Position numbers and translations under genes: made by a program
Source of the DNA: an uncultured Pseudomonadota bacterium
Lineage (GTDB): Bacteria > Pseudomonadota > Alphaproteobacteria > Rs-D84
Assembly (NCBI GenBank): GCA_946613885.1
Contig: CAMOGA010000004.1
Location: 3,205-67,204 of the forward strand
Length of the DNA: 64,000 nucleotides
Direction: 5' to 3'
Shown here: piece by piece, positions 17,182 to 49,169 of the stretch
How the letters are laid out: each line of letters opens with the position of its first letter
Numbering within the stretch: the first letter of the stretch is position 1
Notes under the pieces: generated by a model
Databases searched by the model: none
Told to the model about the DNA's origin: nothing
What the model saw: the letters and a program-made list of their open reading frames with translations, nothing else

Positions 17182-19818
17182 TTACAACAATTTAACCTTG
17201 GTTGTAGTGGTTTGTGCCTCTTCCCATTCTTTGCAATAATTCTTTTTCGTCTTTTTGCAATTTTGGGTTGTGGTTTCTTTGGTGCATTCACCTGTTGATC
17301 TGTCAAATGTGGTTGACACTTTCATTTTATAATTCCAATTATTAACTTCCGAATTTCCAATAACCCCACCAGAAGCTGCGATAGATGCTGATGCAACGGT
17401 ACCAGCCACAACGGCTGCGCCAGCCACAACCGTCCCTATTGCGGTTTCTGTTCCTACTATAGAACCTATTATTCCTGCCCCAACTGCCGCACCTGTACCA
17501 GCCGTAAACACAGCCGCCACCACGGATGCCGCCGCGATAACCCCTACAGCAATCCATTTACCAACCTCATTGGCTTTCGGTGTTGCGGTATTCGGTAAAG
17601 TACTCCTTTCTGCCCAATCATAACATAATTGTTCTGCGGCATTTTTATTTTGTTCGCCTGCCATTTTAATCTGGTCTTGCATCATACGCGTCATTTCTTC
17701 ATCATATTTTTTGTTGTAATTTTCACGCGCCTTTTTCAATGCCTTGGTTGCAATTCTTTCACGCAAACTGTTTGTTAAATTCGGAAAGCGCGCATTTTCT
17801 TTACCAATCTTACCAAATTTTTTACCATCAAAACCTTCAACCTGACGACCGGTCATACAGTATATAACGTTCGGATCAGATTCAATGGCATGTATTGTGG
17901 TTTCGACACTGTTTTCCAATGCACGAATTTCAACACCATATACTAAATCAGCAATAATATCTTTATCTTCTTTGGCTAATTTATGTCCCGCCTGTTGCAG
18001 TTTTTGCATATATTCATCAACAGTTGTAAATCCATATTCGCCAGTTTTTGGATTTTTCAATGTATATTCAATATCACCCCAATACACAACACCAGACAAT
18101 TTACCCGCCCAACCTTTGCCTTCGGGTTGAGAAACATCTTTTGAAGAAATTCCATCCGCAGATTCACGACAATCCGATGTCCATGTTATTTCGTTACCGG
18201 ATATGCTGTCGTATTTACAAACCTGATATTTGAACGAACGCGAACCCGCCAATTCATCCAATGCGAAATTATTACAATCATCGGTATCACCACAAACCTT
18301 AACTGTTGCCTCGTCCAATGCCTTTTGACATGCAGTGAATAAATCATTATCAATTTGCAATGCGACACCCTGGGCAATTTGCGCGACATAATCACGCACA
18401 CTGTCTTTGTCATAATCGGTCATACATGCGACCAATTTTTCTTCTGGGCACATATTGCCAATTGTTTCTGTATCTAAACCGATGCATTTTGAATAATCTG
18501 CACCACAAATATCGGTCAAACATTCTTTAACCTCGGTCGTACAAGCATCAACACGCATTGCCCCTAAACGCGCGACAACATAATCCCAAATTGCAGGTTC
18601 CATACGTTCACATGGATCAATTTGTACTTTACAGAAAGAACGTGCCATATCCGGTTTTGCCAGACATGCATCCATTGTTGCAACACCTTTGCCCGCAATA
18701 TCATCTTTACACGCCTTTTGAATACATGTTGAAATATCACCCATACATGATTGGCGTTTTTGTGATTCTATATTTTGTTCTGCCAAACGAATTGTTGGTG
18801 CAGATTCACGCAAGAAATCATCCCACACATAATCACGCACCGAAACACATTGATCCAAAACCTTTTCACAAATAAAACGTTTAGAATCTAATCTTTCCAT
18901 TGTAGATGCGGTTATATCGTATTTTTTTATTGTTTCAACCTTGGTACCGGCTGTACTGACGGCACGGTTATTTTGCATATTTTCAGCCGCAATAGTAAAC
19001 ACACATTGCCCCCAATCAGAACCACATGCATCATCACCCATCATACATTTTTTAAATTCAACCATACACGTTCCGCGGTCATATTTGTTTGATTGTGCCA
19101 AAGAATCTTTTAACGCGCCACGCACAGCCGCCTGAGCAGATTTTAATGCCGCGTTGGCTTCTTGTTTTTTCTGGGTTATGCTGTTTGCCAATCCTTTGCA
19201 ATCCGAAGTAATTTGACGCAAATACATCTGTGTTAATAATTTCATATCTTTACTGCAAGAATCAGGAACCTGTTTTTGACATAATTTATTTGCAGAATCA
19301 TATAATGCACGACCAGTTAAATCTGACAGTTCTTCATCATCAAAAGCATCTTCGTCATCATCGTAAATTGAAGACCATTTAACTGTTGTTTTTTCTTTTT
19401 CTTGTGGTTTATTTTTTAATTTCTGAACAGAACCGTCCGCATTATAAACCCTTTCGCCACCACCAAATATAATATCTGCGTTGGCACCCGCCTGAACTTT
19501 TTCAACCTCTTCAGTACTAATACGTTCGGCCTCGGCCAAAGTTTTTCTGATTTCTTCTAAATCAGATTCATATTTTTTGGATTCATCACTGCAAGAACAC
19601 GAACCTCCATTTTCATTATCAACAATACAAAAATTATCCATACATGCATAATATGTATTATAACATTCTTCGTCATAAACCCCGGTTGCCTCTACTCTGG
19701 CCCGAACCTTAGTTCCACCAGTAATTGCGGAAGATTTAGAAGCAGCAAACGAATCGCCTGTTATAGCAAACACACCCAACAAACCGACAAATAAACCAAA
19801 CCTAAAAAAGTGCTTCAT
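17182..19818 (-). CDS. CMD-box cysteine-rich secreted protein, paralog A (878 aa), with C-terminal Gly-zipper hydrophobic region
   Basis: GGAGAGAGAG SD, signal peptide (..DSFA|AS), about 36 Cys, motif CYNTYYACMDNFCIVDNENGGSCSCSD. Colinear with the 894-, 725- and 772-aa ORFs. No family recognised. Confidence 0.85.
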   Translation of the reverse strand: MKHFFRFGLFVGLLGVFAITGDSFAASKSSAITGGTKVRARVEATGVYDEECYNTYYACMDNFCIVDNENGGSCSCSDESKKYESDLEEIRKTLAEAERISTEEVEKVQAGANADIIFGGGERVYNADGSVQKLKNKPQEKEKTTVKWSSIYDDDEDAFDDEELSDLTGRALYDSANKLCQKQVPDSCSKDMKLLTQMYLRQITSDCKGLANSITQKKQEANAALKSAQAAVRGALKDSLAQSNKYDRGTCMVEFKKCMMGDDACGSDWGQCVFTIAAENMQNNRAVSTAGTKVETIKKYDITASTMERLDSKRFICEKVLDQCVSVRDYVWDDFLRESAPTIRLAEQNIESQKRQSCMGDISTCIQKACKDDIAGKGVATMDACLAKPDMARSFCKVQIDPCERMEPAIWDYVVARLGAMRVDACTTEVKECLTDICGADYSKCIGLDTETIGNMCPEEKLVACMTDYDKDSVRDYVAQIAQGVALQIDNDLFTACQKALDEATVKVCGDTDDCNNFALDELAGSRSFKYQVCKYDSISGNEITWTSDCRESADGISSKDVSQPEGKGWAGKLSGVVYWGDIEYTLKNPKTGEYGFTTVDEYMQKLQQAGHKLAKEDKDIIADLVYGVEIRALENSVETTIHAIESDPNVIYCMTGRQVEGFDGKKFGKIGKENARFPNLTNSLRERIATKALKKARENYNKKYDEEMTRMMQDQIKMAGEQNKNAAEQLCYDWAERSTLPNTATPKANEVGKWIAVGVIAAASVVAAVFTAGTGAAVGAGIIGSIVGTETAIGTVVAGAAVVAGTVASASIAASGGVIGNSEVNNWNYKMKVSTTFDRSTGECTKETTTQNCKKTKKNYCKEWEEAQTTTTKVKLL

Positions 19819-19840: not shown

Positions 19841-22018
19841 TTACATATTTATGTCTTCACAAGATTCGATTTGCTGACAAAAATCGGTTTTCCCGCCAGA
19901 TTGATACCCCAACACACCGGCACCAACCGCACCAACAACACCACCAATTGCCGTTCCCCATCCAGCATTTATCATTGTTCCTGCGGATGCGCCTGCGGAC
20001 AAACCACCGGCTGCTGCCTTCAATGCGGCGGTTGATTTTTTCTCGCCACCTTGTTCGCAAACCTGTTGCATACGACACACATGACAATTACGTGTATTTG
20101 GTTCAAACGAAACACTTTTTATATACATGTAATTTGATTTTGAATTCTTTGGTTGTTCTGCTTTGTATGTATTCAAACAAACCTGTTCCGCCTTGCTTAC
20201 ATCAGCTTTGCGTGTTAATTCTGCAATTTTCGTATCTAATTCACGCAAATTACGATTTTCTGCTGACATTTTTGCCAATAATTTTGCGGTATTAAATACA
20301 TTTGTTCCCAAAGAATTTTTTCCTTTCAATTTTTTACCACTGCCACTTTGTGAATCAGCGCATGCCGCAACCGTCTTGTCACGTTCAAATTGTTTGAAAA
20401 ATTCTTCAACAGACGCATCAGAGGCAGCGATTATCTTTGCACGCAAATTCGCAGATTTTGATTCAGTATCAGGCAGTTCTGTTAATTTTTCTACATCGTT
20501 TACAATTGGTAAACACGCCATATCTGTCCCACAAACCTTGCTTAATTGTTCACTAAAATAATTTACACAACCTGTTAACATCTGGTAATCCATTTGCAGA
20601 ATCGCAGATTGCACAATTATATCAAATTGAACTGCATTTTTACACGATGGGAACATACTCTGTGGACACAATGCTACAATTTCATACGATTTTTTACCAA
20701 CACATTCTGGTTTAGTAAAATCAACACCGCATTTATCTTGCAAGCATTTATCAACATCATTTTCACAGAATTTTGTCTGTAAATACCCCAGTTTATCATT
20801 AATTACAGATTGAAACCCAGGAATCATGTCATTACATTCTGTGATAACTGGACATATTCCAGCCGCCACATTAACATTAGTCAAACATTCCGCATTTGTA
20901 GATGTAGAACAACTTTCTTCCAAACAATTTTGAACACGTGCCAAACACGTTCCACGCTTGTTTGTATCTGCGTATTTTGCCGCCTCTGCCAGAACGCTTT
21001 TGGATTCAGCCGCCCAATCTTCGACAACATAATCACGTACCGCCATACACTGATCCAGAATATTATCACACGCATTTGAACGACGTTGCAATAATCCTGC
21101 ATCCAGACAGTTTTCAAAATTTGCACCACAACCACCCTTGTCTGCTATGCACGCACGATATGCCAACAAACATTCGCCACGATTGTATTTGTTTGTTGTG
21201 TCCAACATTTCCAAACGCGCTTTGCGAACCGCAGATTCCGCAATACGTTTATTAGATTCTGCATTTGCCTTTTGTTCTTTCAAATACGCATCATAAGTTT
21301 TGCAATCTTGGGTCACCATACGAGAATATAACAATTCTTCCATTTTTGCCCTATCACCACATGCCGCCAAATCTGGTTTACAATATTTTACCGCCATACC
21401 ATACAAAGAATCGCCAATTTCCACATCTTCATCCAAATCGCCACTATCATCACCAGATAACCAAGACATAAAATCTATACTGGAAATTTTCTGACTGGCC
21501 GGCGCATCATCTTTGAACACCAATCGTGCCTTGGCACCCAATTGTTCACGTTCGACACCTTCGGTAAACAATTTGTCGGCTTCTTCTTGAATTTTTAAAA
21601 CTTCATTAATTTTACTTTTGGCGCGTTCTATATTATCAGAACATGCGCAACGTTCACCCTGGCTTTCATCCAACAAACAAAAATTATCCATACATTCACG
21701 ATACGCATCACGACAATCGTTTGACGATACAACCGCATCATCAGACGCATCAACCATATCATCATCCGAATCGTCTGCAACATCATCATACACAGGCAAT
21801 GCCTGAGCCGCCGCAACAGTGTCGGCAGTAATCATTGCCCCAGCCGAAGTCGAAGTATTTGTATTTGTTTGTATGGCTTTGCCGGCCATACCTGGCATAC
21901 GTGCCGATGTTTGATTATTTCTGCTGACCCCAACGCGAACCTCGCTATCCCCGCGAGATGCCGCAAACGCGACCATTGGAACTAATAAAACCAACGGTAA
22001 AATTTTTATTATTTTCAT
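19841..22018 (-). CDS. CMD-box cysteine-rich secreted protein, paralog B (725 aa), with Gly-zipper near the C-terminus
   Basis: ATG 22018 (MKIIKILPLVLL...) lies 9 nt after an AGAGGGA SD. Contains CRDAYRECMDNFCLLDESQGERCACSD. Stop is 22 nt upstream of the paralog A start, suggesting an operon. Confidence 0.85.
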   Translation of the reverse strand: MKIIKILPLVLLVPMVAFAASRGDSEVRVGVSRNNQTSARMPGMAGKAIQTNTNTSTSAGAMITADTVAAAQALPVYDDVADDSDDDMVDASDDAVVSSNDCRDAYRECMDNFCLLDESQGERCACSDNIERAKSKINEVLKIQEEADKLFTEGVEREQLGAKARLVFKDDAPASQKISSIDFMSWLSGDDSGDLDEDVEIGDSLYGMAVKYCKPDLAACGDRAKMEELLYSRMVTQDCKTYDAYLKEQKANAESNKRIAESAVRKARLEMLDTTNKYNRGECLLAYRACIADKGGCGANFENCLDAGLLQRRSNACDNILDQCMAVRDYVVEDWAAESKSVLAEAAKYADTNKRGTCLARVQNCLEESCSTSTNAECLTNVNVAAGICPVITECNDMIPGFQSVINDKLGYLQTKFCENDVDKCLQDKCGVDFTKPECVGKKSYEIVALCPQSMFPSCKNAVQFDIIVQSAILQMDYQMLTGCVNYFSEQLSKVCGTDMACLPIVNDVEKLTELPDTESKSANLRAKIIAASDASVEEFFKQFERDKTVAACADSQSGSGKKLKGKNSLGTNVFNTAKLLAKMSAENRNLRELDTKIAELTRKADVSKAEQVCLNTYKAEQPKNSKSNYMYIKSVSFEPNTRNCHVCRMQQVCEQGGEKKSTAALKAAAGGLSAGASAGTMINAGWGTAIGGVVGAVGAGVLGYQSGGKTDFCQQIESCEDINM

Positions 22019-22044
22019 ATGAAACATTCCCTCTTTACCGTTTT

Positions 22045-22490: not shown

Positions 22491-24809
22491 ATGAGAAAAA
22501 TTTGTCTGATTTTAATCGGGCTTGTGTTGTGCATTAATAATGTTAATGCGGCTGTTCGTAATACTAACACACAAAATACAAGACAAATTGTATCCCCAAG
22601 AAATGATGTGAACACAATTGTTCGTGCAACCACGCAAAAACGTACTGTCACACAACGTTCATCTGGCAAAAATCAGAATACATCTGTGCGCGGAACTGCT
22701 AAAAAAACAGTAATTGGTCGTTCTGCAACGCAACCGATTACGTCTGCACGTAATAATATTGCACAACCAACCCGCGTATCACGTGCTGCAACAAATAATA
22801 TAAAAACACGTACATTTGGTGATAATTATAATTCATGTCGCGATGCATACTTTACGTGTATGGATCAATTTTGTGCAAATGTAAATGAAAATTATCGTCG
22901 CTGCGTTTGTTCGTCTAAATTAAAAGATATTCAAAACAAAGAAAAATTATTATCACAAACATCAACCAATCTGCAAAGTTTCGAAGATTTTAATATTGAT
23001 GCGATTTCAAAAACTGCCGCTGAGGTAAAAGCAATGGGTTCTGCAACAGCCGGTGAATCCGCAATAAAAAAAGACACATCTGCCAGTGCAAAAACATTAA
23101 ACAGCGTCAGTAGTGTTTTAAGTGATACAAAAAAACAATCTTTATCAACCGCTGGGAAATTAGATGCGGGTGGCGACATCAAAACAATCTGGGCAACAAC
23201 CGATTTTATTGGTGGTGCAGATATTGCCAATCTGACAGGCGATGCATTATTTAATGCAGTTCATTCACAATGCGCAGAAATGGTTGCTGAATCTTGTGCA
23301 GATTCTAATTTGAAAATGGTATCTTCTGCATATGGAATGTATATTGAAAATGATTGTGCGGTATTAGAAAATAACCTGAATAAAAAAACAACCGCGGCAA
23401 ATGCATCAATACGAACAACGCGTCATAAAATGCAGGACGCACGTTTGGAAAATTATAATGCACACAATTCATTAAATCTGGATGATTGTATTGCACGTGT
23501 TCGTTCAGATATTATCGCGGATACCGCATGTGGTGATGGATATATTCATTGTTTAGATTTTTCCGGTAAATATTTAAATATCACAACAGGTGCACCAATT
23601 TATTCGCCAGATTTTTACCAAATCGAAAATCAAATATCTTTATCTGGTGATGTTTTAAATAACAGTCAAAATTCATCGTTTATTACGATGCTGAACAAAA
23701 AACGGGCATTTGCCAAAAAAGATTTAGATTTATGTGTTGATGATGCAGATTATGTATGGAACGAATTTTTACGTCAGGCATTGGTTGAAATTTATCAGGG
23801 TCAACAAAAACGTGTTCAAAATGTAAAAAATGAATGTTTACAGGTTGTAAATGAATGTTATTTGAATCAATCTGAATCTTTGAAAAATTTTACAGATTCT
23901 TCTTCGCAAATGATATTCGTGCAATCGCTGGAATTATCCGAAGAAATGTGTGCTGAAAAACTGGATACTTGCAGCAACCTGTACGGTGGTGGCCCAGAAG
24001 GGTTAAACACATTAATTGCAACAATGACTGGCATAACAGATTTAACCATAGAACAATCATGTCCTGCGTTATTGGCAACATATGCTCAATCTATATGCAC
24101 CCCACCTGCCAGCGATTCTGCACATGCATATCCATACGGGTGTCGTAAATATGCGCCTGGTGAATCGTATTATGCCCGTAATGAAATATGCAATACAACA
24201 CTTGTAAATCCGTTTTCACGCTCTGATATTTTAACAACACACACAATGTCTTTGGGATATGCAGATTATGCCGGATATTGTGAAGATAAATCATATAATA
24301 AAATATATACCAGTTGTAATGTCGGATATTATTTACATAACACTGAATGTGCAAATTCAGACAGGGTTCTTTATGATTTTTGTTTACTTAACGCAACAGA
24401 ATGTCTTAAATGTCCTGATAATTTAATATGCCCTGGTGGGACAAAGGCGCCTGTTTCGATTGATGATGATTTGTACCAAAATTGCGGACAATATTATGTT
24501 GGCAGTTTATACCAACAATTGGTTATATACGCATTGCAAAATTGCACACGAACAACAAATACATCAAATGTGTTATCAGAATATCTGTTGTCAGAGGTTG
24601 ATAAAGTAGCAACCAGTGTTCGTATGTCTTTGGTATCTGCTTTGTCCAAAGAATGTTCCGATATGAACGGGTTGTGGGTTGATGCAATATGGTCAGATGA
24701 CAACAATGACGGATACCATGATAAAACTGGGGATACATTATTTGGTGATTTCTATGTTGCAACGGGCGCGAATAAATTGTGGGGTTATTGTAAAAATCCA
24801 AACCAATAA
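22491..24809 (+). CDS. CMD-box cysteine-rich secreted protein, paralog C (772 aa), with CxxCP-type C-terminal module
   Basis: Signal peptide (..NNVNA|AV), R/T/N-rich region, CRDAYFTCMDQFCANVNENYRRCVCSS and later family motifs. The C-terminus contains CLKCPDNLICPGG. Confidence 0.85.
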   Translation: MRKICLILIGLVLCINNVNAAVRNTNTQNTRQIVSPRNDVNTIVRATTQKRTVTQRSSGKNQNTSVRGTAKKTVIGRSATQPITSARNNIAQPTRVSRAATNNIKTRTFGDNYNSCRDAYFTCMDQFCANVNENYRRCVCSSKLKDIQNKEKLLSQTSTNLQSFEDFNIDAISKTAAEVKAMGSATAGESAIKKDTSASAKTLNSVSSVLSDTKKQSLSTAGKLDAGGDIKTIWATTDFIGGADIANLTGDALFNAVHSQCAEMVAESCADSNLKMVSSAYGMYIENDCAVLENNLNKKTTAANASIRTTRHKMQDARLENYNAHNSLNLDDCIARVRSDIIADTACGDGYIHCLDFSGKYLNITTGAPIYSPDFYQIENQISLSGDVLNNSQNSSFITMLNKKRAFAKKDLDLCVDDADYVWNEFLRQALVEIYQGQQKRVQNVKNECLQVVNECYLNQSESLKNFTDSSSQMIFVQSLELSEEMCAEKLDTCSNLYGGGPEGLNTLIATMTGITDLTIEQSCPALLATYAQSICTPPASDSAHAYPYGCRKYAPGESYYARNEICNTTLVNPFSRSDILTTHTMSLGYADYAGYCEDKSYNKIYTSCNVGYYLHNTECANSDRVLYDFCLLNATECLKCPDNLICPGGTKAPVSIDDDLYQNCGQYYVGSLYQQLVIYALQNCTRTTNTSNVLSEYLLSEVDKVATSVRMSLVSALSKECSDMNGLWVDAIWSDDNNDGYHDKTGDTLFGDFYVATGANKLWGYCKNPNQ

Positions 24810-40716: not shown

Positions 40717-43401
40717 TTAATGTGATTTTCCCATTTGGACGGTTTCTGTATTCAGCACAGTTCCTTCATCAAATTGATCACAATAGCCACCACCTATTCT
40801 GTGTTTAAAATTGGTACAATTATATTTAGTGGTCGTAATCGTACAAACATTTGTTGCAGAATCATACGTTGCAATAGTATCTGTCAATTGTTTAATTTTT
40901 CTGCATGCCAAATGTTTAAGGGTATAATTATCATCCGCATCCTTGCCACAACCAGTCTTTGTTTCTAATTTAGTACCATTCCAAATACGATAACTTGTTC
41001 TGTGACTGTCTTCTGCTGTATATTTATCACAACTCTTTTGATTTTCTTCATCTTTATCAACTTCATTATCGGCATAAATCATTTCGGCAATTTGATTATC
41101 CAAATCTGCTATTTGTTGTGTATATTTACTGGTTAATTCAGCATTTTTTTCTGATAACCTATTTAATAAACTGTCTGCAATAACACTGCGGTATGAATCC
41201 GTCAGATTCGGGAAACGTGCTTTGCCTGCTTCTTTACTTCCGAAATTTTTTGTACTATCAAAGCCCTGCACTTTACGCCCTTCTGTACAATAAATAACCT
41301 TAGGATCTGTGTTAATTGATGCCATTATACGATTTAATGCATTATCCAAAATTGGCGATACTTTATCATCACCAGAAAACTTCACTTCTCTGCGACCGTT
41401 GTTATCTTCTGTGTAATCGTACGATACTTTATATATATCTGGTGTCCCAACCAGAGTCGCCTGATAGTTTCCAGATTTTAAATCATTGGTGGTCATCATT
41501 GCCAAACCAGATTTACAGTCATTTCCTGGTTTACCATTTGGACAAATCTGAACACTGATATCACGTTCCAAAGGCGACAAATCAAATGTTGCAGCATCAC
41601 AAGTTTCTGTATCACCACAAATTTTTACCATGGCTTCGTTTGCCGCATTTTGACATGCGGTTGCCAGTGCATTATCAATTTGTATTGCCAATCCCTGGGC
41701 GATTTGTGCAACATATTCTTTAACCGTTTCTTCATTATATTTCGGTTTACCATTTTCATCTGCACTCATACATGCTGTCAATTTTTGATATGGACATATA
41801 TCACCAATTGAGTCAGTATCCAAACCGATACAGCCCGAATAATCATCGCCACAACGTTCGGTCAAACATGCCTTGACTTCTGTTGTACATGCATCAACCT
41901 TCATTGCACCCAATATCGCCAATAATCCGTTCCACAAAGTTGATTTTGTTGGGTTATTATAATCCCCACCGGTGGCTTCCAAACATGGTTCCAATTGAAC
42001 CTTGCATAACGATTTGTATGTTTCTGGATTGGATAAACACATATCGTATGAATCACTGTCCCCAAAATTGGATTTACATGCATTTTGGAAACATTTTGCA
42101 AGTGTTGGTATACAATTCGAACGTAAATTTTGTTCAGCAATTAATTCTGCAGATTTTATCGCAGGTGCCGCATTACGTAAAAATCCGTTCCATACTGCAT
42201 CATTTTTGTTTGAATTAACACACTGTTTTGTGATACGTTCGCAAATCATTTTCTTTGCCAATAATTGTTCCATTGTTGATGCAGCCAATGTTATATCTGC
42301 ACCACCACGTGAACCCTTGATTTTAGATTGCTTTGCAACACTGCCTTTCTTGTTATTTTTTACATTTTCATTGGCCGCCAATGTCACACATCCTGTATAA
42401 TCATCACCACATTCTGCGGTTGTTTTCATACATTCAGTAAATGCAATCACACATTCACCAGTTGTTGCATATTTATTCTGATTTTTATATTCATCCAATG
42501 CTGCATCACGTAATGCCTTTTGTGCAGTTTGTAATTTTTGTTGACTTTGACTTCTTTGCGCCTTTAAACTGTTTTCATACGCGATACAATCAGATTTAAT
42601 TTTTTGCGCATAAACCAATGATAACATTGAACCATAACTTTTGCATTGCGCAGGAATCTGGGCAGAACATATTTTTACTGTTTCGTTATATAATGCCGTT
42701 CCTTTCTTATCCATCAAAGATTGTTGGGCAGATTGCGCATCAAAAATATCATCATCTAAATCAGAAAACACATTATTATCGAATATAGACAAATCTAATG
42801 TACGCGCCCGCTTTTTATTTTCTTCGGTCTGTTTGTTGGCATTTGCAGCCTGTTCGCCAGCCATTTGGGCACGTTTCATAATTTCCGCCTCGGCTTCGCC
42901 CATTTGAATACGTTCGACACCTTCGGTTGCCATGATATATGATTGTTCATCCAGTTTTACAATTTCTTCCAGAACTTTATCTAATTCAGTAATTTTATCA
43001 TTACATTGACAACGACCGCCGGTTGCATTGTCTAACATACAAAACGCATCCATACATCCATAAAAAGCATTTTGACATTCTTCTGGCACCGCAGTATTTT
43101 CGGTTGCCACTGCAACCTTGGTTCCTGTATTTATGACCTTTTGCGTGGCACCCGCACGTGCCGCCTGAACACCAGGTTTTACCGCCGTCTGTTTTTTGCC
43201 AGCCCGTGCAGAAACATTTCCATTATTTACAACCTGTTGACGTTTACCTGCGCGTGCATTATTTACATTTACTGTTTCTGATGTATCATTGTTCACCGTA
43301 TTAACAGCATTATTACGTCCACGTTGGGCAACCGCCGCATTTGCAGTAAAATCCGCCACACAAAGCGATAAAAACAATGCAAAAAACATATATTTGCGCA
43401 T
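40717..43401 (-). CDS. CMD-box cysteine-rich secreted protein, paralog E (894 aa)
   Basis: AAGGAG SD, signal peptide (..FTANA|AV), three ARAG repeats, CQNAFYGCMDAFCMLDNATGGRCQCND. Long identical blocks with paralog A (MKVDACTTEVKACLTERCGDDYSGCIGLDTDSIGDICP). Confidence 0.85.
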   Translation of the reverse strand: MRKYMFFALFLSLCVADFTANAAVAQRGRNNAVNTVNNDTSETVNVNNARAGKRQQVVNNGNVSARAGKKQTAVKPGVQAARAGATQKVINTGTKVAVATENTAVPEECQNAFYGCMDAFCMLDNATGGRCQCNDKITELDKVLEEIVKLDEQSYIMATEGVERIQMGEAEAEIMKRAQMAGEQAANANKQTEENKKRARTLDLSIFDNNVFSDLDDDIFDAQSAQQSLMDKKGTALYNETVKICSAQIPAQCKSYGSMLSLVYAQKIKSDCIAYENSLKAQRSQSQQKLQTAQKALRDAALDEYKNQNKYATTGECVIAFTECMKTTAECGDDYTGCVTLAANENVKNNKKGSVAKQSKIKGSRGGADITLAASTMEQLLAKKMICERITKQCVNSNKNDAVWNGFLRNAAPAIKSAELIAEQNLRSNCIPTLAKCFQNACKSNFGDSDSYDMCLSNPETYKSLCKVQLEPCLEATGGDYNNPTKSTLWNGLLAILGAMKVDACTTEVKACLTERCGDDYSGCIGLDTDSIGDICPYQKLTACMSADENGKPKYNEETVKEYVAQIAQGLAIQIDNALATACQNAANEAMVKICGDTETCDAATFDLSPLERDISVQICPNGKPGNDCKSGLAMMTTNDLKSGNYQATLVGTPDIYKVSYDYTEDNNGRREVKFSGDDKVSPILDNALNRIMASINTDPKVIYCTEGRKVQGFDSTKNFGSKEAGKARFPNLTDSYRSVIADSLLNRLSEKNAELTSKYTQQIADLDNQIAEMIYADNEVDKDEENQKSCDKYTAEDSHRTSYRIWNGTKLETKTGCGKDADDNYTLKHLACRKIKQLTDTIATYDSATNVCTITTTKYNCTNFKHRIGGGYCDQFDEGTVLNTETVQMGKSH

Positions 43402-43513: not shown

Positions 43514-44071
43514 TTATTTACCAGTTGCACGACGTTTAACTGCAACAGTTTTTTTCGCACCAGTTGCCTTTGGCGCAGCCGCTTTCTTTTCTGCTGCAAC
43601 CTTGGTTGTTTTTGGTGCTTTTGGTGCTTTGACCGCTTTTTCTTCTGTGGCTACTGGTTCTGTTGTTTCTGCTGCCACTGTTTTTGGTGCAGATTTTTTT
43701 GCACTTTCATCTCTGTCCACCAATTCAATAATTGCCATTGGTGCCGCATCACCGTAACGGAAACCCGCCTTTAATACGCGTGTATAACCGCCAGGACGTT
43801 TTGCATAACGTGGTCCCAAAACTGTGAATAATTTTTTCACTGCCTTGTCAGAACTGTTACCCAATTCAGATGCTGTTAAACGGCGATTTGCAACAGTGTC
43901 AACCTTAGCACGGGTAATCAATTTTTCGACAACCCTGCGTAAATCTTTTGCCTTAGGCAATGTTGTTTTAATTTGTTCACGTTCAATTAAATTTTTCGCC
44001 AAACCAATAAACAAGGCCTTGCGAGCGTTTGTATCGCGATTAAAAGTGCGACCTGCTTTCATATGTCTCAT
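43514..44071 (-). CDS. rplQ: 50S ribosomal protein L17 with A/K/P-rich C-terminal extension
   Basis: [20 protein letters not shown]...GGYTRVLK core, then a tail of about 60 aa. Confidence 0.95.
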
Positions 44072-44095
44072 TGATTACTCCTTTTGTTGTTTCTG

Positions 44096-44152
44096 CCCTG
44101 GGATACCCAGGGATTTTTGAGACCCCGCAACCTGGGTTTCCCCAGAATTGCG
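44096..44152 (-). other. Two GC-rich stem-loops in the rpoA-rplQ spacer
   Basis: CCGCAA..CTGGG-gaaa-CCCAG..TTGCGG and CCCTGGG-tat-CCCAGGG (read on the minus strand). Neither is followed by a T tract. Confidence 0.35.
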
Positions 44153-44166
44153 GATTTGTTTATTTA

Positions 44167-45195
44167 TTATTTATACGGATCTTCGTATTTTTTTGCCAAT
44201 TCAGCAATGTTTTCTGGTGGCCATCCTGGAACTTCCATTCCTAATGACAATCCCATTGCTTCCAATTGTGCCTTAATCTCGTTCAAAGATTTGCGTCCAA
44301 AGTTCGGTGTTTTCAACATATCGTTTTCGGTTTTTTGAACCAATTCACCCAACCAATTAATACGATCATTCTTTAAACAATTTGTTGCACGAACAGACAA
44401 TTCTAATTCGTCAACATGTTTCAATAATTTTGGATCAAATGGTAAAACATCTTTGGATTTTTCATCGTCATCACCAGATGTAATTTGTGTCGGATCTTCA
44501 AAGTTAATGAATACGTTCAATTGATCTGTCAAAATACGCGCAGCAAACGCAATTGCATCTTCTGGGGTGACAGAACCATTTGTTTTAACCGTCAATTCCA
44601 ATTTGTCGTAATCTGTTGATTGACCAACACGGGTTTGTGAAACGTTTGATGCAACGTTCAAAATTGGCGAATAAATTGAATCAACTGGGATTGTTCCCAA
44701 TGGTAAATTTGCCGCATTAACAGTTGCAGGAACATACCCACGACCAGATGCCAATGTGATTTCCATATCCAACACTGCGCCATTATCCAAAGTGCAAATT
44801 TCTGCATCTTTGTTCATAACTTCGACATTGCCAGATGTTTCAATCATGCCTGCCGTCACAACCGCTGGGCCTTTGACTTTTATTGTCGCCTTGTGTTGAC
44901 CTTCGGTTAACGCTTTGAAATAAACACCTTTTAAATTCAAAATAATATCTGTGACATCTTCGCGAACGCCGGCTAAACTGCTGAATTCATGCTGAACACC
45001 ATCAATTTTAACATAGATTGGTGCGCATCCCTGCAAAGAAGACAACAACACACGACGCAAAGCCGTTCCCAACGTCAAACCAAAACCCTTTTCCAAAGGT
45101 TCTGCGATTAATGTTGCGATATTTGGGTTATTTTCATCGACTTTGATATTCAATTTTTTTGGCTTAATCAAAGTCATCCAGTTTTTTTCAATCAT
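44167..45195 (-). CDS. rpoA: DNA-directed RNA polymerase alpha subunit
   Basis: Canonical N-terminal domain ([22 protein letters not shown]) and C-terminal domain ([13 protein letters not shown]). Confidence 0.95.
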
Positions 45196-45261
45196 TTTTT
45201 ACTCCATCGGGCTTAGTTTATTATTTTCACCAGATTTACACACAACCGTGTGTGTTCGGAA

Positions 45262-45290
45262 ATTCTATAATAATTTTTTTGAATTGTCAA
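45262..45290 (-). promoter_or_regulatory. Predicted dedicated promoter of rpoA-rplQ (TTGACA-17-TAGAAT)
   Basis: Minus strand: TTGACA (45290-45285) and TAGAAT (45267-45262), followed by an ACACACA-cggt-TGTGTGT hairpin (45255-45238) in the leader. Confidence 0.45.
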
Positions 45291-45295
45291 TTATT

Positions 45296-46339
45296 TTAAT
45301 TATTTTCTGATACGTTTTTGACAACACGCGTATTAATTCTGCCAACGGTTAAAACAGACGGTATTTCTATATTACTGCCGTTTCCAAACGACAATTTTAT
45401 TGACACTGCCTTACAATCATCGGCTTTTGTTTTCCCGGTCCCATTTGTCGTTGTTCCCGATGGACATGAGATACAAGACGATGCACCAGTACCTGAGAAA
45501 GTTCCAATTGGGCATATATAATCATTATTATCAACACTGTTGGGTTTGCAACTATTATTTCTATTACTCCCAGTCATCCCAGTGTTTGGACAATAATATC
45601 CTGCAAGACACGAAACACATGATTCAGCGCCAGCCCATGAACATGTGCCAACAGAACAGGCAATTGACATCCCATTTCCAGAACAATATGACCCCGCAGG
45701 ACATTGTTCACAAACACCATTTAACATATAATGTCCCGTATTGCACGCAATACAATCATTATGTTCAGCATTTGCAAAATTACCGGTTGCACACGTTTGG
45801 CACACATTGTTATTGTCATAATATTCTGTTAATCCATCACATACCACACATTGTGTATGGTCTGAATTCGAATACGGTGTTTCACCATCACATTGTGTAC
45901 ATTGCACCGCACCAGCATCGGATATTTCGGCACCCTGACAAGAATTTATATTGCCATCACCATTACAATACGACCCCGCAGGACATTGTTCACAAACACC
46001 ATTTAACATATAATGCCCCGCATTGCATGCAACACAACCGTTATGATTTGTATTTGCAAATTTTCCAGATTCACACGTTTGACACACATTGTTGTTATCA
46101 TGATATTTTGTTAATCCATCACATGCCACACATTGTGTATATGTTGAATCTGAATATGGTGCATCATCTGGACACAGTTGCGGTGCGTTTGTGCCGTCAC
46201 ATGAATACCCACCGGGACATGTTTCGCAAACACCGCCATTATCATATTCACCCACATCACATGCAAATACACCATATATACCACCAACGGATACACATAC
46301 AAACATTATCCCAGACAAAAAACATTTCCATAAATGCAT
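45296..46339 (-). CDS. Secreted CxxC-repeat protein (347 aa, 38 Cys, 12 CxxC motifs)
   Basis: N-terminal hydrophobic signal/anchor, then repeated C-x2-C-x-[AG]-G-x-Y modules. Own promoter and SD. Confidence 0.8.
   Translation of the reverse strand: MHLWKCFLSGIMFVCVSVGGIYGVFACDVGEYDNGGVCETCPGGYSCDGTNAPQLCPDDAPYSDSTYTQCVACDGLTKYHDNNNVCQTCESGKFANTNHNGCVACNAGHYMLNGVCEQCPAGSYCNGDGNINSCQGAEISDAGAVQCTQCDGETPYSNSDHTQCVVCDGLTEYYDNNNVCQTCATGNFANAEHNDCIACNTGHYMLNGVCEQCPAGSYCSGNGMSIACSVGTCSWAGAESCVSCLAGYYCPNTGMTGSNRNNSCKPNSVDNNDYICPIGTFSGTGASSCISCPSGTTTNGTGKTKADDCKAVSIKLSFGNGSNIEIPSVLTVGRINTRVVKNVSENN
45653..46174 (-). repeat. Tandem duplication with 282-bp (94-aa) period inside the 347-aa gene
   Basis: ccccgcaggacattgttcacaaacaccatttaacatataatg occurs at 45692 and again at 45974. 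At the protein level, CPDDAPYSDSTYTQCVAC... parallels CDGETPYSNSDHTQCVVC... Confidence 0.8.
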
Positions 46340-46372
46340 GGATAAATCGCCTTTCCTAATATCTCAGGAAAT

Positions 46373-46401
46373 ATCATAGCAATATAAAAAAAATCATGCA
46401 A
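46373..46401 (-). promoter_or_regulatory. Predicted promoter (TTGCAT-17-TGcTATGAT) of the 347-aa gene
   Basis: Minus strand: TTGCAT (46401-46396) and TATGAT (46378-46373). Confidence 0.4.
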
Positions 46402-46410
46402 CAAAAAACA

Positions 46411-48069
46411 TCAAAGTTCAGATGCCTCAAACAATGTCTTGCGGATACCGGCGTTCGTTTTAACCGCATCGGCACAGTGTTTTGCACACGCAGTTTCACA
46501 AAACGGTAAAGCCACAGGATTCACCATTACCCACTTCTGGGTAGGTTTGATTTTGCAGCCATTAATGGTAAAATCTGCCCCGCTTGAAGAACAAGAACAC
46601 TTTTTATCATTACAACTGGCACTGCCTGTTAAAATTCCACCATGATAAGTGACAGACCATGTATTGCCACTAGAAGTGGCCATAACTCCGGACAAAGCGA
46701 GTGCCCTGTCACACCCCCTCCCGACATAAGCATTTGATGCATCGCGTGACTTATTCGTATTTACTGCAATCTTTGCACATTTCCCGTTCACCACATTGTA
46801 CCCATGTTTACAGTCTGTGGCACGACAAGACCAATCTATACGACCATTATTATTAGCACATTCACATTGTGCTTTGGACACAGATTCATCTAGGCGATAC
46901 CCATAACTGGATTGGCAATATAAGAACCTGTTATCGTCACAATCCACATCTATTTTTGCCCCCAAATCAAAGGTTTCGTAATCATCACCAAAAAAATGAC
47001 TGCATACATCTTTTGTTGACCCTTCTTTTACACAATTCGTATCCTCCTGTTGTATCCAGCCATCTTTACAGTGAGAGATATAACAGACCCACCCCACAGG
47101 GGTACACTTGCAATATCCGTCCCCGAAACCAGATGTATCATATAATATTGCTAACCCTGTACAATCTGTATCATCTGTAAAACAATTAAAATCTATGCGT
47201 TCGTCCTTCTTATATTCTTTGCCCTTGAATATACATTGGTCGGTATTATGGTTATTATTTGCCGATGTTTTTTTATTTTCTGATGTCTTTTTATTTTCTG
47301 ATGTCTTTTTTACGCATTTTGTTTTGTCTGATGATGGGGTATAAGGTTTGGCACATGCTGTCACCTCACATTTTTCACCGTGTTTTACCGCACGTATAAC
47401 ATTTTCATCCGTTTTCTGCGCATCTGCGGTGCAATCGGTTTCAGTATCAACAACATTTAATTCACAATGTTGTTTATCTGAGGTTGGTTGATACCCGGTA
47501 TCGCATTCTATGATTTCACATGTTTCGCCGTTCTTGGTCGCTTTTGTGACATTTTCATCTTTCGCCTTTGCTTCATCCGTACAATCCGTTGTATCTGTGG
47601 GCTGAACAGTCGTTGGTTGCTGCGGTTGTGTCACAGTTATTACAACACACGCCCCATTTTGATACACTTTGCCTGTTTCATTACATGTGCAAGTGCTATT
47701 ATTATATGTTCCACCTGCCCGTTCACATTGTTCACGTAGTATTTGTTCCGCCGCAGCCAGACGTTTTTGTTCTTCTAATTTTTTTATATTTTCTTGGGTA
47801 TCTGATATTTGTTTGTCTGTTTTTTCTATCTTTTTATCATAATCTTTTTGCGTGTTTGACAATGCAATATTACCGGCAACACCGACCGCAGTTAATCCCA
47901 ATGTTGATATACCAGCAATTTTCCATCCATTTATATTACCACTGCATTTTTCCAATTCAGCCATCTTTTGTTGTTTTTCCGCAACCAATTGATTATAACG
48001 CGCACTGGCCCCAAATACGTATGTTGGGATGATTGCCATCATTAATGAAATTAATATGCATTTCTTCAT
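46411..48069 (-). CDS. Cysteine-rich secreted/membrane-anchored protein (552 aa) with coiled coil and internal repeats
   Basis: Signal peptide ending ..VFGA|SAR, Gly-rich hydrophobic helix (WKIAGISTLGLTAVGVAGNIAL), coiled coil, then a Cys-rich region. Confidence 0.8.
   Translation of the reverse strand: MKKCILISLMMAIIPTYVFGASARYNQLVAEKQQKMAELEKCSGNINGWKIAGISTLGLTAVGVAGNIALSNTQKDYDKKIEKTDKQISDTQENIKKLEEQKRLAAAEQILREQCERAGGTYNNSTCTCNETGKVYQNGACVVITVTQPQQPTTVQPTDTTDCTDEAKAKDENVTKATKNGETCEIIECDTGYQPTSDKQHCELNVVDTETDCTADAQKTDENVIRAVKHGEKCEVTACAKPYTPSSDKTKCVKKTSENKKTSENKKTSANNNHNTDQCIFKGKEYKKDERIDFNCFTDDTDCTGLAILYDTSGFGDGYCKCTPVGWVCYISHCKDGWIQQEDTNCVKEGSTKDVCSHFFGDDYETFDLGAKIDVDCDDNRFLYCQSSYGYRLDESVSKAQCECANNNGRIDWSCRATDCKHGYNVVNGKCAKIAVNTNKSRDASNAYVGRGCDRALALSGVMATSSGNTWSVTYHGGILTGSASCNDKKCSCSSSGADFTINGCKIKPTQKWVMVNPVALPFCETACAKHCADAVKTNAGIRKTLFEASEL
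47262..47318 (-). repeat. Three 18-bp tandem repeats encoding (KKTSEN)3
   Basis: tgatgtctttttattttc is repeated; the protein reads KKTSENKKTSENKKTSAN. Confidence 0.8.
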
Positions 48070-48090
48070 TTGGGAATTCCTTACCGCGCT

Positions 48091-48099
48091 ATTATATCA
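48091..48099 (-). promoter_or_regulatory. Extended -10 element (TGATATAAT) upstream of the 552-aa gene
   Basis: Minus-strand TGATATAAT, weak -35, AAGGA SD 9 nt before the ATG. Confidence 0.35.
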
Positions 48100-48129
48100 G
48101 ATTTTACATACTGAAAAAAGGAATAAATT

Positions 48130-48161
48130 AAAAAAAAATGGGTTGCCCTGTTGGCAACCCA
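48130..48161 (-). terminator. Strong rho-independent terminator immediately after rpsK
   Basis: Minus strand: TGGGTTGCC-aacag-GGCAACCCA (9-bp GC-rich stem) followed by T9. Confidence 0.7.
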
Positions 48162-48181
48162 AATAAATAATACACAAATTA

Positions 48182-48565
48182 TTATACGCGACGTACTTTC
48201 TTTGGACGGCACCCGTTGTGTGGAATACGTGTTGTATCTGTGATTGATTGAATTACCAATCCGGCATTTGCCAAACCACGTACTGCTGATTCACGACCTT
48301 GACCAATTCCGCGCATTAAAACATCAACTGTTTGCATTCCCATTTCAGCGACTTTTTTACCAACTGCATCTGCAACAACTGTCGCGGCATATGGTGTTGA
48401 TTTTTTTGCACCCTTGAAATTATTAGCCCCTGCGGTTGCCCATGTTAATACGGCGCCCGTTTGGTCTGTGATTGTGATACGTGTATTGTTATTAGTTGCA
48501 ACCACATGCGCAATTCCATGTGATACTTTTTTAACAACTTTCTTTTTTGATTTTGTAATTGCCAT
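48182..48565 (-). CDS. rpsK: 30S ribosomal protein S11
   Basis: Conserved sequence (ATAGANNFKGAKKSTPYAA...IPHNGCRPKK) and operon position. Confidence 0.95.
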   Translation of the reverse strand: MAITKSKKKVVKKVSHGIAHVVATNNNTRITITDQTGAVLTWATAGANNFKGAKKSTPYAATVVADAVGKKVAEMGMQTVDVLMRGIGQGRESAVRGLANAGLVIQSITDTTRIPHNGCRPKKVRRV

Positions 48566-48624: not shown

Positions 48625-49002
48625 TTATTTACCCTTGGTCGCAGAACCCGCAACAACAACGCGTTTACCCTTACGAGTACGGGCGTTAGTTTGTGTACGT
48701 TGACCACGAACTGGCAAACGGTTACGATGACGAACACCGCGATAAGTTTTTAAATCTTGCAAACGTTTAATATTCATTGCAACTTCGCGACGAACATCAC
48801 CTTCTACTTTGAAGTTTTGTTCAATATAATTTGAAATTTTGATAACATCTTCGTCTGTCAAATCTTTTGCGCGCAGACCGTCTTTCAATTTTAACGCAGA
48901 ACAAATCTGTGCAGATTTTGCCGGCCCAATACCATGAATGTATTGCAACGCAATTTCAATGCGTTTTTCGGACGGGATGTTAACACCTGCTATACGTGCC
49001 AT
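48625..49002 (-). CDS. rpsM: 30S ribosomal protein S13
   Basis: [26 protein letters not shown]... Confidence 0.95.
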
Positions 49003-49169
49003 CTTTTATTTTCCTTTTTTCTTGCTTGTCATCCTTAACATTGGTCAAAGATGATATCTGTTTATACGAATGTTTCCATTCAACCCTGCACCCAAAATCC
49101 ACACGTTTTTTGAATGCATCTCGATTTTTATTTGGTAAATATAAAAAACCAAATAAAAATCAAATCTTG

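Follow-up and report, generated by a model that had tools for sequence, protein, structure and literature searches.

A probably ancestral split of the alpha operon between rpsK and rpoA in Candidatus Enterousia, occupied by variable genes for predicted exported proteins

Introduction

The question raised by the locus described here is whether two genes for cysteine-rich proteins broke the alpha operon between rpsK and rpoA, or whether they occupy a split that was there before them. The locus lies in a 64,000-nt stretch of DNA (the window) from Candidatus Enterousia, with all of its genes on the minus strand. Its rpsK-rpoA gap (45196-48181, 2,986 bp) holds two intact same-strand genes, each preceded by a Shine-Dalgarno sequence (SD), whose products of 552 and 347 aa are referred to as C552 and C347 and, together with their genes, as cargo. 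This confirms the initial annotation of the stretch, which had noted a gap of about 3 kb with two Cys-rich open reading frames (ORFs) of these lengths. The comparative data assembled here favor the second possibility: the operon split appears to be ancestral to the genus and the cargo genes to be its current tenants, not its cause, a reading to which a probability of about 0.7 is given.

Candidatus Enterousia is a reduced-genome gut alphaproteobacterium of the order Rs-D84, a group whose genomes are mostly smaller than 1 Mb and lack the tricarboxylic acid cycle and respiratory chains (PMC12306168). For comparison, the rpoA protein was searched against one genome per species, yielding 80 loci, and related loci are designated by L-numbers. 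The best rpoA relatives reach 94% identity and are labelled as Candidatus Enterousia or as metagenome-assembled genomes (MAGs) of uncultured gut Alphaproteobacteria. L081 is an independent assembly of the same species as the window; L076, L077, L078 and L080 are distant outgroups, and L057, L058, L061, L062, L065 and L079 near-outgroups. Terminators and promoters were scanned over 8.2 kb around the locus.

The rpsK-rpoA junction across the clade

The junction in the window is made up of the following elements.

48182-48565, minus strand: rpsK (ribosomal protein S11; Pfam Ribosomal_S11, 3.6e-38), last gene of the upstream unit
48130-48161, minus strand: terminator-like site with a 9-bp stem, 5-nt loop and T9, the top terminator match in the scan
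48091-48099, minus strand: extended -10 TGaTATAAT, predicted promoter of the C552 gene, read from the sequence
48082-48078, minus strand: SD AAGGA of the C552 gene
46411-48069, minus strand: C552 ORF, 552 aa with 38 Cys (6.9%)
47255-47312, minus strand: 18-nt tandem repeat inside C552, 3.2 copies, encoding KKTSEN
46373-46401, minus strand: predicted C347 promoter TTGCAT-17-(TGc)TATGAT with TG extension, read from the sequence
45296-46339, minus strand: C347 ORF, 347 aa with 38 Cys (11%)
45262-45290, minus strand: putative rpoA promoter TTGACA-17-TAGAAT, an 11/12 match and the best promoter match in the scan
45238-45255, minus strand: P1, a hairpin of the leader (ACACACA/UGUGUGU), located where the rpoA mRNA is predicted to begin
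45206-45235, minus strand: leader element P2, a short stem with the 16-nt loop GAAAAUAAUAAACUAA (loop 45228-45213)
45205-45202, minus strand: SD GGAG of rpoA, abutted by the P2 3' strand
44167-45195, minus strand: rpoA (Pfam RNA_pol_A_bac, RNA_pol_L and alpha-CTD)

The hairpin that follows rpsK, TGGGTTGCC-AACAG-GGCAACCCA plus T9 (48161-48130; 6 GC pairs among 9), begins 20 nt past the stop codon and has the sequence features of an intrinsic terminator. Both this site and the near-consensus rpoA promoter were found where the initial annotation had placed them, and each cargo gene has a promoter-like element, as it had stated. Promoter-like sites in the scanned region are not enriched (34, compared with 27.5 +/- 5.6 in shuffled sequences), so that a single sequence constitutes weak evidence and the case is made by comparative data. 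The rpsK hairpin is treated below as a putative terminator, and the rpoA and cargo motifs as putative promoters.

The spacing between rpsK and rpoA is 24-43 bp in the four distant outgroups, which have the classical layout, compared with 134-9,715 bp (median 1,680 bp) in the 43 colinear ingroup species. In nine species the 10 kb upstream of rpoA contain no rpsK, and in L068, L069 and L071 the secY-rpsM-rpsK block is inverted and lies downstream. It was found that rpoA-rplQ is detached from rpsM-rpsK (more than 10 kb away or rearranged) in 12 of the 55 informative species, indicating that rpoA-rplQ can function without rpsM-rpsK upstream, and the detached units retain their promoter and leader. 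Between species, DNA homology to the window ends at the rpsK stop (48181/48182) and restarts at 45232-45241 (45279 in L006), all of the intervening DNA being species-specific.

Counterparts of the rpsK hairpin and of the rpoA promoter are found in about 75 related species. A strict scan recovered a hairpin with a T-run after rpsK in 44 of 56 loci and missed five ingroup loci, three of which (L012, L047 and L051) show by eye a larger-loop hairpin with a T-run, and two of which (L017 and L022) have a hairpin whose T-run is not clear; no such terminator-like structure follows rpsK in the outgroups L076-L080. In almost every ingroup locus the hairpin sits 5-60 nt past the stop codon, with a similar design and unrelated sequences. 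Likewise, the motif TTGAC[T/A]-17-TAnAAT is found in about 73 of 76 ingroup loci, with its distance from the rpoA ATG fixed at -95 to -104, and is absent from the outgroups. The hexamers, the 17-bp spacer and the distance to the ATG are thus conserved while the upstream DNA is non-homologous, as expected of a sigma-70 promoter. As for the cargo promoters, the extended -10 of the C552 gene is kept in L081, and the TGCTATGAT element of the C347 promoter also precedes C347-type genes in L002 and L004.

The order of events is suggested by L046 (gap of 134 bp) and L065 (gap of 109 bp), in which the terminator abuts the promoter with no gene between them and the leader is present. Terminator, promoter and leader in these cargo-free loci imply that the split predates this cargo, so that the claim of the initial annotation that two inserted genes broke the alpha operon had to be abandoned. 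Its other claim, that rpoA-rplQ expression may be uncoupled from rpsM-rpsK, is supported by the genus-wide retention of the boundary elements and by the detached species, and rpoA-rplQ is very probably a transcription unit apart from rpsM-rpsK. It had also been considered that the insertion might be universal and already annotated in the clade. This applies to the split, which is universal there, but not to the two-gene cargo of the window, whose exact C552-C347 layout was found only in L081 (same species; 95% identical at the nucleotide level along 5.5 kb) and which is annotated only as 'hypothetical'.

A conserved leader upstream of rpoA

Downstream of the -10 element, P1 and P2 form a leader that is present in every ingroup locus, in a single copy and always before rpoA. 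P1 starts a few nucleotides past the -10 and folds as a hairpin of at least 5 bp in 56 of 57 distinct leaders (median -9.9 kcal/mol, median z -3.1), the sequences of which are unrelated. P2 has the consensus GGY-GAAAAURAUAAACUAA-RCY, with a 16-nt loop that is invariant in 76 aligned leaders and a stem of 3-5 bp. Its three closing pairs form in all 63 distinct sequences, with C-G/U-G/U-A and G-C/G-U/A-U/U-A variation, and its 3' strand abuts or overlaps the SD. The near-outgroups L057, L058, L061, L062, L065 and L079 also carry the motif; L076-L078 and L080 lack it.

The leader (45196-45262) gave no Rfam 15 match at E <= 5, and the Rfam library that was searched contains no rpoA-specific leader. 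When metagenome contigs were scanned for the exact pattern of the leader motif, 120 stretches were returned, in which the flanking GGY/RCC pairs occurred only 12-19 nt before an Enterousia-like rpoA (at least 80% identity); the remaining matches were chance A/T-rich sequence without rpoA, and a distribution of the motif beyond the clade was rejected. A coding explanation, in which the block would be read as a mini-ORF, (M)-V/A-K-I/M-I-N-stop, or would extend rpoA at its N-terminus, was also discarded: synonymous positions are invariant, no SD precedes the block, several species lack a start codon and the spacing to the ATG is not divisible by three.

The rpoA leader emerges as a candidate for an unannotated cis-regulatory RNA, and it is most likely a protein-bound translational operator, although the motif may instead act as a DNA-level site. 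A more specific and tentative proposal, considered rather unlikely as a whole, is that the gap would serve specifically for the expression of surface proteins that evolve fast and recombine, the transcription of which would feed rpoA-rplQ, and that rpoA-rplQ itself would be controlled by this leader RNA, not described before, whose 16-nt loop would be recognized and bound by a product of the same unit, such as L17 with its basic tail, for autogenous translational control.

Transcription units at the cargo

The genes that bound the two halves of the operon in the window are the following.

48625-49002, minus strand: rpsM
43514-44071, minus strand: rplQ (L17), with a terminator-like site 3' of it at 43495-43472

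A full-length match to Alpha_RBS (RF00140) covers the rpsM start (48970-49059, minus strand; 33 bits against a gathering threshold of 38; E 1.5e-4), which suggests an S4-type leader at this position, with rpsD not in the cluster. The rpsM-rpsK unit thus probably extends from a putative S4-type leader to the T9 terminator. On the rpoA side, the 8.2-kb scan found no terminator-like site between the C552 gene, the C347 gene and the rpoA promoter, the -35 of which begins 6 nt past the C347 stop codon, and the next terminator-like site downstream of the cargo is the one after rplQ. In the absence of a terminator after the cargo the units would be nested, with three promoters feeding rpoA-rplQ. It had been proposed that the operon is broken into at least three transcription units: the promoters predicted for them stand, and the insulation that the proposal implies was overstated, given that no terminator separates cargo and rpoA. 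On the rpoA side, nested units are more probable than insulated ones, and cargo transcripts probably read through into rpoA-rplQ, adding to the output of its dedicated promoter. In some other species, for example L013, L051, L052 and L057, a terminator is located just before the rpoA promoter.

It could be argued that the alpha operon is still one functional unit, in which the rpsK hairpin serves as an attenuator, a processing site or an mRNA-stabilizing 3' structure, the rpoA promoter is weak or unused and rpoA is expressed mainly by read-through. In its favor, intrinsic terminators are often leaky, a terminator is missing between cargo and rpoA, and the near-outgroups L062 and L079 have a long hairpin lacking a U-tract, together with the leader, and no clear promoter. 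However, such an arrangement is hard to reconcile with the 12 of 55 species in which a detached rpoA-rplQ keeps its promoter and leader, with the conservation of hexamers, spacer and ATG distance amid flanks that are not conserved, or with P1 being located exactly where a 5'-terminal stabilizing hairpin would be expected. A single functional unit is therefore regarded as unlikely, and a separate rpoA-rplQ unit that also receives cargo transcripts is preferred.

The gap as a variable slot and the origin of the cargo

To describe the content of the gap across the clade, gap-encoded ORFs with a length of 100 aa or more were gathered from related loci (158 in total) and clustered by BLAST, resulting in about 80 clusters that are mostly singletons. 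Ten cluster representatives were sampled: one proved to be an alpha/beta hydrolase, and for eight no credible Pfam match was obtained. C347-type genes are found in the same slot of the nearest relatives (L002-L007, L086 and L087), and C552-family genes in the slot of L052 and, as three tandem paralogues, of L083, where the gap is a six-gene island of 7.5 kb; members of the C552 family also occur outside the slot, in L082 and L085. A separate observation concerns a small secreted protein (about 105-140 aa) with the motif PVRVKTHTEVIDHYQVYQPV and a C-terminal CxxC, which is encoded in the gap of 32 species in either orientation (for example L015:9381-9791(-) and L059:6708-7028(+)), matches no Pfam or NCBIfam family and is not encoded in the window.

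Could the two genes have entered an intact operon recently, by horizontal transfer or on a mobile element, and brought the terminator and promoters with them? The C552 and C347 genes themselves are absent from every other sampled species and the outgroup rpsK-rpoA junction is tight, as would be expected from such an event. Nevertheless, terminator and rpoA promoter are conserved throughout the genus, including the cargo-free gaps of L046 and L065, by which this scenario is largely refuted, and sister species share C347-type genes in the same slot. Neither flanking repeats nor a tRNA were found at the cargo, and no recombinase, integrase, transposase or phage family was present among its Pfam and PHROG matches. 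In addition, GC content (0.40), GC at third codon positions (GC3; 0.25-0.32) and the correlation of relative synonymous codon usage (RSCU; 0.74-0.82) of the cargo are within the range of the neighboring genes. Taken together, a recent foreign insertion is not supported, the classification of the cargo as a mobile element or genomic island was rejected on account of its native composition and the lack of recombinase, repeats and tRNA, and an insertion that broke the operon is considered quite improbable. The preferred reading remains that of tenants in an older split.

The cargo proteins C347 and C552

Both proteins have a charged and then hydrophobic N-terminus, which AlphaFold2 models as a helix, and both are predicted to be exported on this basis. 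In C347 the hydrophobic N-terminus is followed by CxxC...GxY repeats, and the protein matches Pfam Ephrin_rec_like (PF07699) marginally above the cut-off (23.7 bits, with a cut-off of 23.1), with homologues in the same slot scoring 51-57 bits. When compared with the PDB, the family profile retrieved the Mst1 mastigoneme protein of Chlamydomonas (1.2e-50) and ELAPOR1 (2e-16). The AlphaFold2 model (pLDDT 78, and above 90 over residues 100-220) shows an elongated beta-hairpin fold with a ladder of predicted disulfides, and Foldseek matched it to 8wa2 (E 1.6e-8, probability 1.0), to 9vqm (2e-4) and then to members of the tumor necrosis factor receptor (TNFR) family. C347 is accordingly modeled as a rod of ephrin-receptor/TNFR-like cysteine-rich repeats, that is, a eukaryote-type stalk, and its gene contains an internal duplication of about 280 bp. 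Two other candidate identities were discarded. A Giardia-type variant surface protein (VSP) was rejected because there is no PF03302 match at E <= 0.1 and the C-terminus (...VVKNVSENN) lacks a hydrophobic helix, and a 319-aa plus-strand ORF at 45400-46359 was rejected as a shadow of the Cys-codon-rich C347 gene.

C552 has 113 homologues, all unnamed or 'hypothetical', and nearly all share only residues 1-100. This conserved N-terminal module (1 to about 110) consists of a signal-like helix, a helix leading to an invariant Cys42, the near-invariant Gly/small-residue hydrophobic segment AGISTLGLTAVGVAGN and a coiled coil, and is followed by a variable, Cys-rich C-terminal part. Searches with Pfam, NCBIfam, PHROGs, a PDB sequence profile and Foldseek returned nothing significant, the best sub-significant matches being fibronectin type I modules (E 0.5) and coiled-coil noise. 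The AlphaFold2 model (mean pLDDT 70) contains two tandem domains of about 50 aa above 93, without a PDB fold match by Foldseek. The first 555 nt of the gene (48069-47515) share 95.9% identity with a paralogue from another genomic locus, L082:6001-6565, which adjoins an OmpA-family gene, and beyond them homology ends abruptly; this indicates that C552 is a mosaic, presumably shaped by recombination or gene conversion among family members. The KKTSEN repeat is one unit shorter in strain L081, which suggests slippage-type length variation.

When the window was compared with L081, the ratio of nonsynonymous to synonymous substitution rates (dN/dS) was 0.69 for C552 and 0.32 for both C347 and the 894-aa Cys-containing ORF downstream of rplQ (C894), as opposed to 0-0.06 for secY, rpsK, rpoA and rplQ. 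All 38 Cys residues of each cargo protein are conserved and the ORFs are intact. Fast evolution on a fixed Cys scaffold would fit surface or secreted proteins that face the host, a partner organism or phage. Finally, the notion that the layout is a mis-assembly or chimera, or that the cargo ORFs are non-coding, which might be entertained for a MAG contig with two proteins for which Pfam and NCBIfam gave no more than one marginal match, can be dismissed as most improbable in view of the identical layout in the independent sample L081, comparable layouts in dozens of MAGs that come from separate studies, ORFs that are intact in both strains, with a dN/dS below 1 and no Cys lost, and the confident domains predicted by AlphaFold2.

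History of the split

A sequence of events can be proposed in which the alpha operon of the clade ancestor would have been cut between rpsK and rpoA, after which an intrinsic terminator would close rpsM-rpsK and rpoA-rplQ would acquire a structured leader and a strong sigma-70 promoter of its own. The non-essential stretch from terminator to promoter would then turn into a permissive slot, in which lineage-specific genes for exported and mostly orphan proteins may have been gained, expanded, inverted and lost. In the species of the window, the slot would currently hold a C347-type gene, common to the nearest sister species, and a more recent C552-family gene.

Several points weigh against this reading. 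The cargo-free loci L046 and L065 may be secondary losses, and the order of split first and cargo later is drawn from parsimony and universal boundary elements rather than from a dated tree. Promoter, terminator and read-through are predictions made from sequence. The raised dN/dS could reflect relaxed rather than diversifying selection. Furthermore, C552 carries a second hydrophobic segment (residues 49-70); if this segment spans the membrane, the Cys-rich part would be cytoplasmic, which conflicts with an exported disulfide-rich domain.

Neighboring genes

The minus-strand gene order in the window is rplO, secY, rpsM, rpsK, C552, C347, rpoA, rplQ and C894. While in many bacteria at least one of adk, infA and rpmJ is usually located between secY and rpsM, here secY directly precedes rpsM with a spacer of 167 bp (49003-49169) and none of the three between them. 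The L17 encoded by rplQ has 185 aa, longer than the typical 130-140 aa or so, and its C-terminal 60 aa or so form a histone-H1-like tail that is rich in Lys, Ala and Pro (43514-43700). The rpoA-rplQ spacer (44072-44166, minus strand) contains two stable hairpins without U-tracts, CCGCAA..CTGGG-GAAA-CCCAG..TTGCGG and CCCTGGG-TAT-CCCAGGG, and in L058, L077 and L078 the two genes are 2.8-4.7 kb apart. Four paralogues of 728-894 aa, signal-bearing and with 4-5% Cys, are encoded in the window at 40717-43401, 17182-19818, 19841-22027 and 22491-24809. The family has no Pfam or NCBIfam match, and most related species have a counterpart of the C894 copy at the same position after rplQ (35-54% identity).

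Significance and comparison with known systems

The ribosomal-protein/RNA-polymerase supercluster is among the most conserved bacterial gene arrangements, and in this genus, with genomes below 1 Mb, it is opened at one point, the opening being used for fast-changing proteins that are predicted to be exported, including a eukaryote-type cysteine-rich stalk. The clade thereby offers a natural series of the fission of an essential operon, from a tight junction, through a hairpin with leader, to a terminator with promoter, cargo and physical separation. It also provides a testable new cis-regulatory RNA candidate for rpoA, as well as candidate host- or partner-interaction proteins in an uncultured and probably dependent gut lineage. 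The themes that are combined here, namely operon fission, variability hotspots and cysteine-rich surface proteins, are known, and no established principle is overturned.

Known 5' structures include the stabilizing hairpins at the 5' end of ompA-type mRNAs and the autoregulatory leaders of ribosomal-protein genes that occlude the SD. P1 resembles the former in lying at the predicted mRNA 5' end, and P2 the latter in that its 3' strand abuts or overlaps the SD; unlike these known structures, the rpoA leader has no Rfam family match and its invariant loop has no known ligand. C347, for its part, is similar in profile, fold and CxxC...GxY pattern to proteins of the ephrin-receptor/TNFR type (Mst1, ELAPOR1 and TNFR ectodomains; PF07699, PF23091), from which it differs in being bacterial and short (347 aa) and in having no transmembrane or kinase part, and it is unlike Giardia VSPs in lacking a VSP match and a C-terminal anchor.

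Chromosomal hotspots of integration and variability between conserved core genes are a general concept in comparative genomics. The slot shares with them fixed core flanks, accessory content that is unrelated between species, tandem expansion of paralogues (L083) and inversions of cargo genes. It departs from them in having no recombinase, tRNA or repeat boundaries, in its native composition, in a cargo that consists almost entirely of predicted exported orphans and in its position inside the ribosomal-protein/RNA-polymerase supercluster of a genome below 1 Mb. In comparison with the canonical alpha operon (rpsM-rpsK-rpsD-rpoA-rplQ in E. coli and rpsM-rpsK-rpoA-rplQ in Alphaproteobacteria, regulated by S4 at the rpsM leader), the window retains the gene order and strand and an Alpha_RBS-like element at rpsM, the latter below the gathering threshold as given above. 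In contrast to the canonical operon, a terminator-like hairpin follows rpsK, rpoA has a conserved putative promoter and leader of its own, and the two halves are separated by 0.1-10 kb of variable genes or, in some species, are unlinked.

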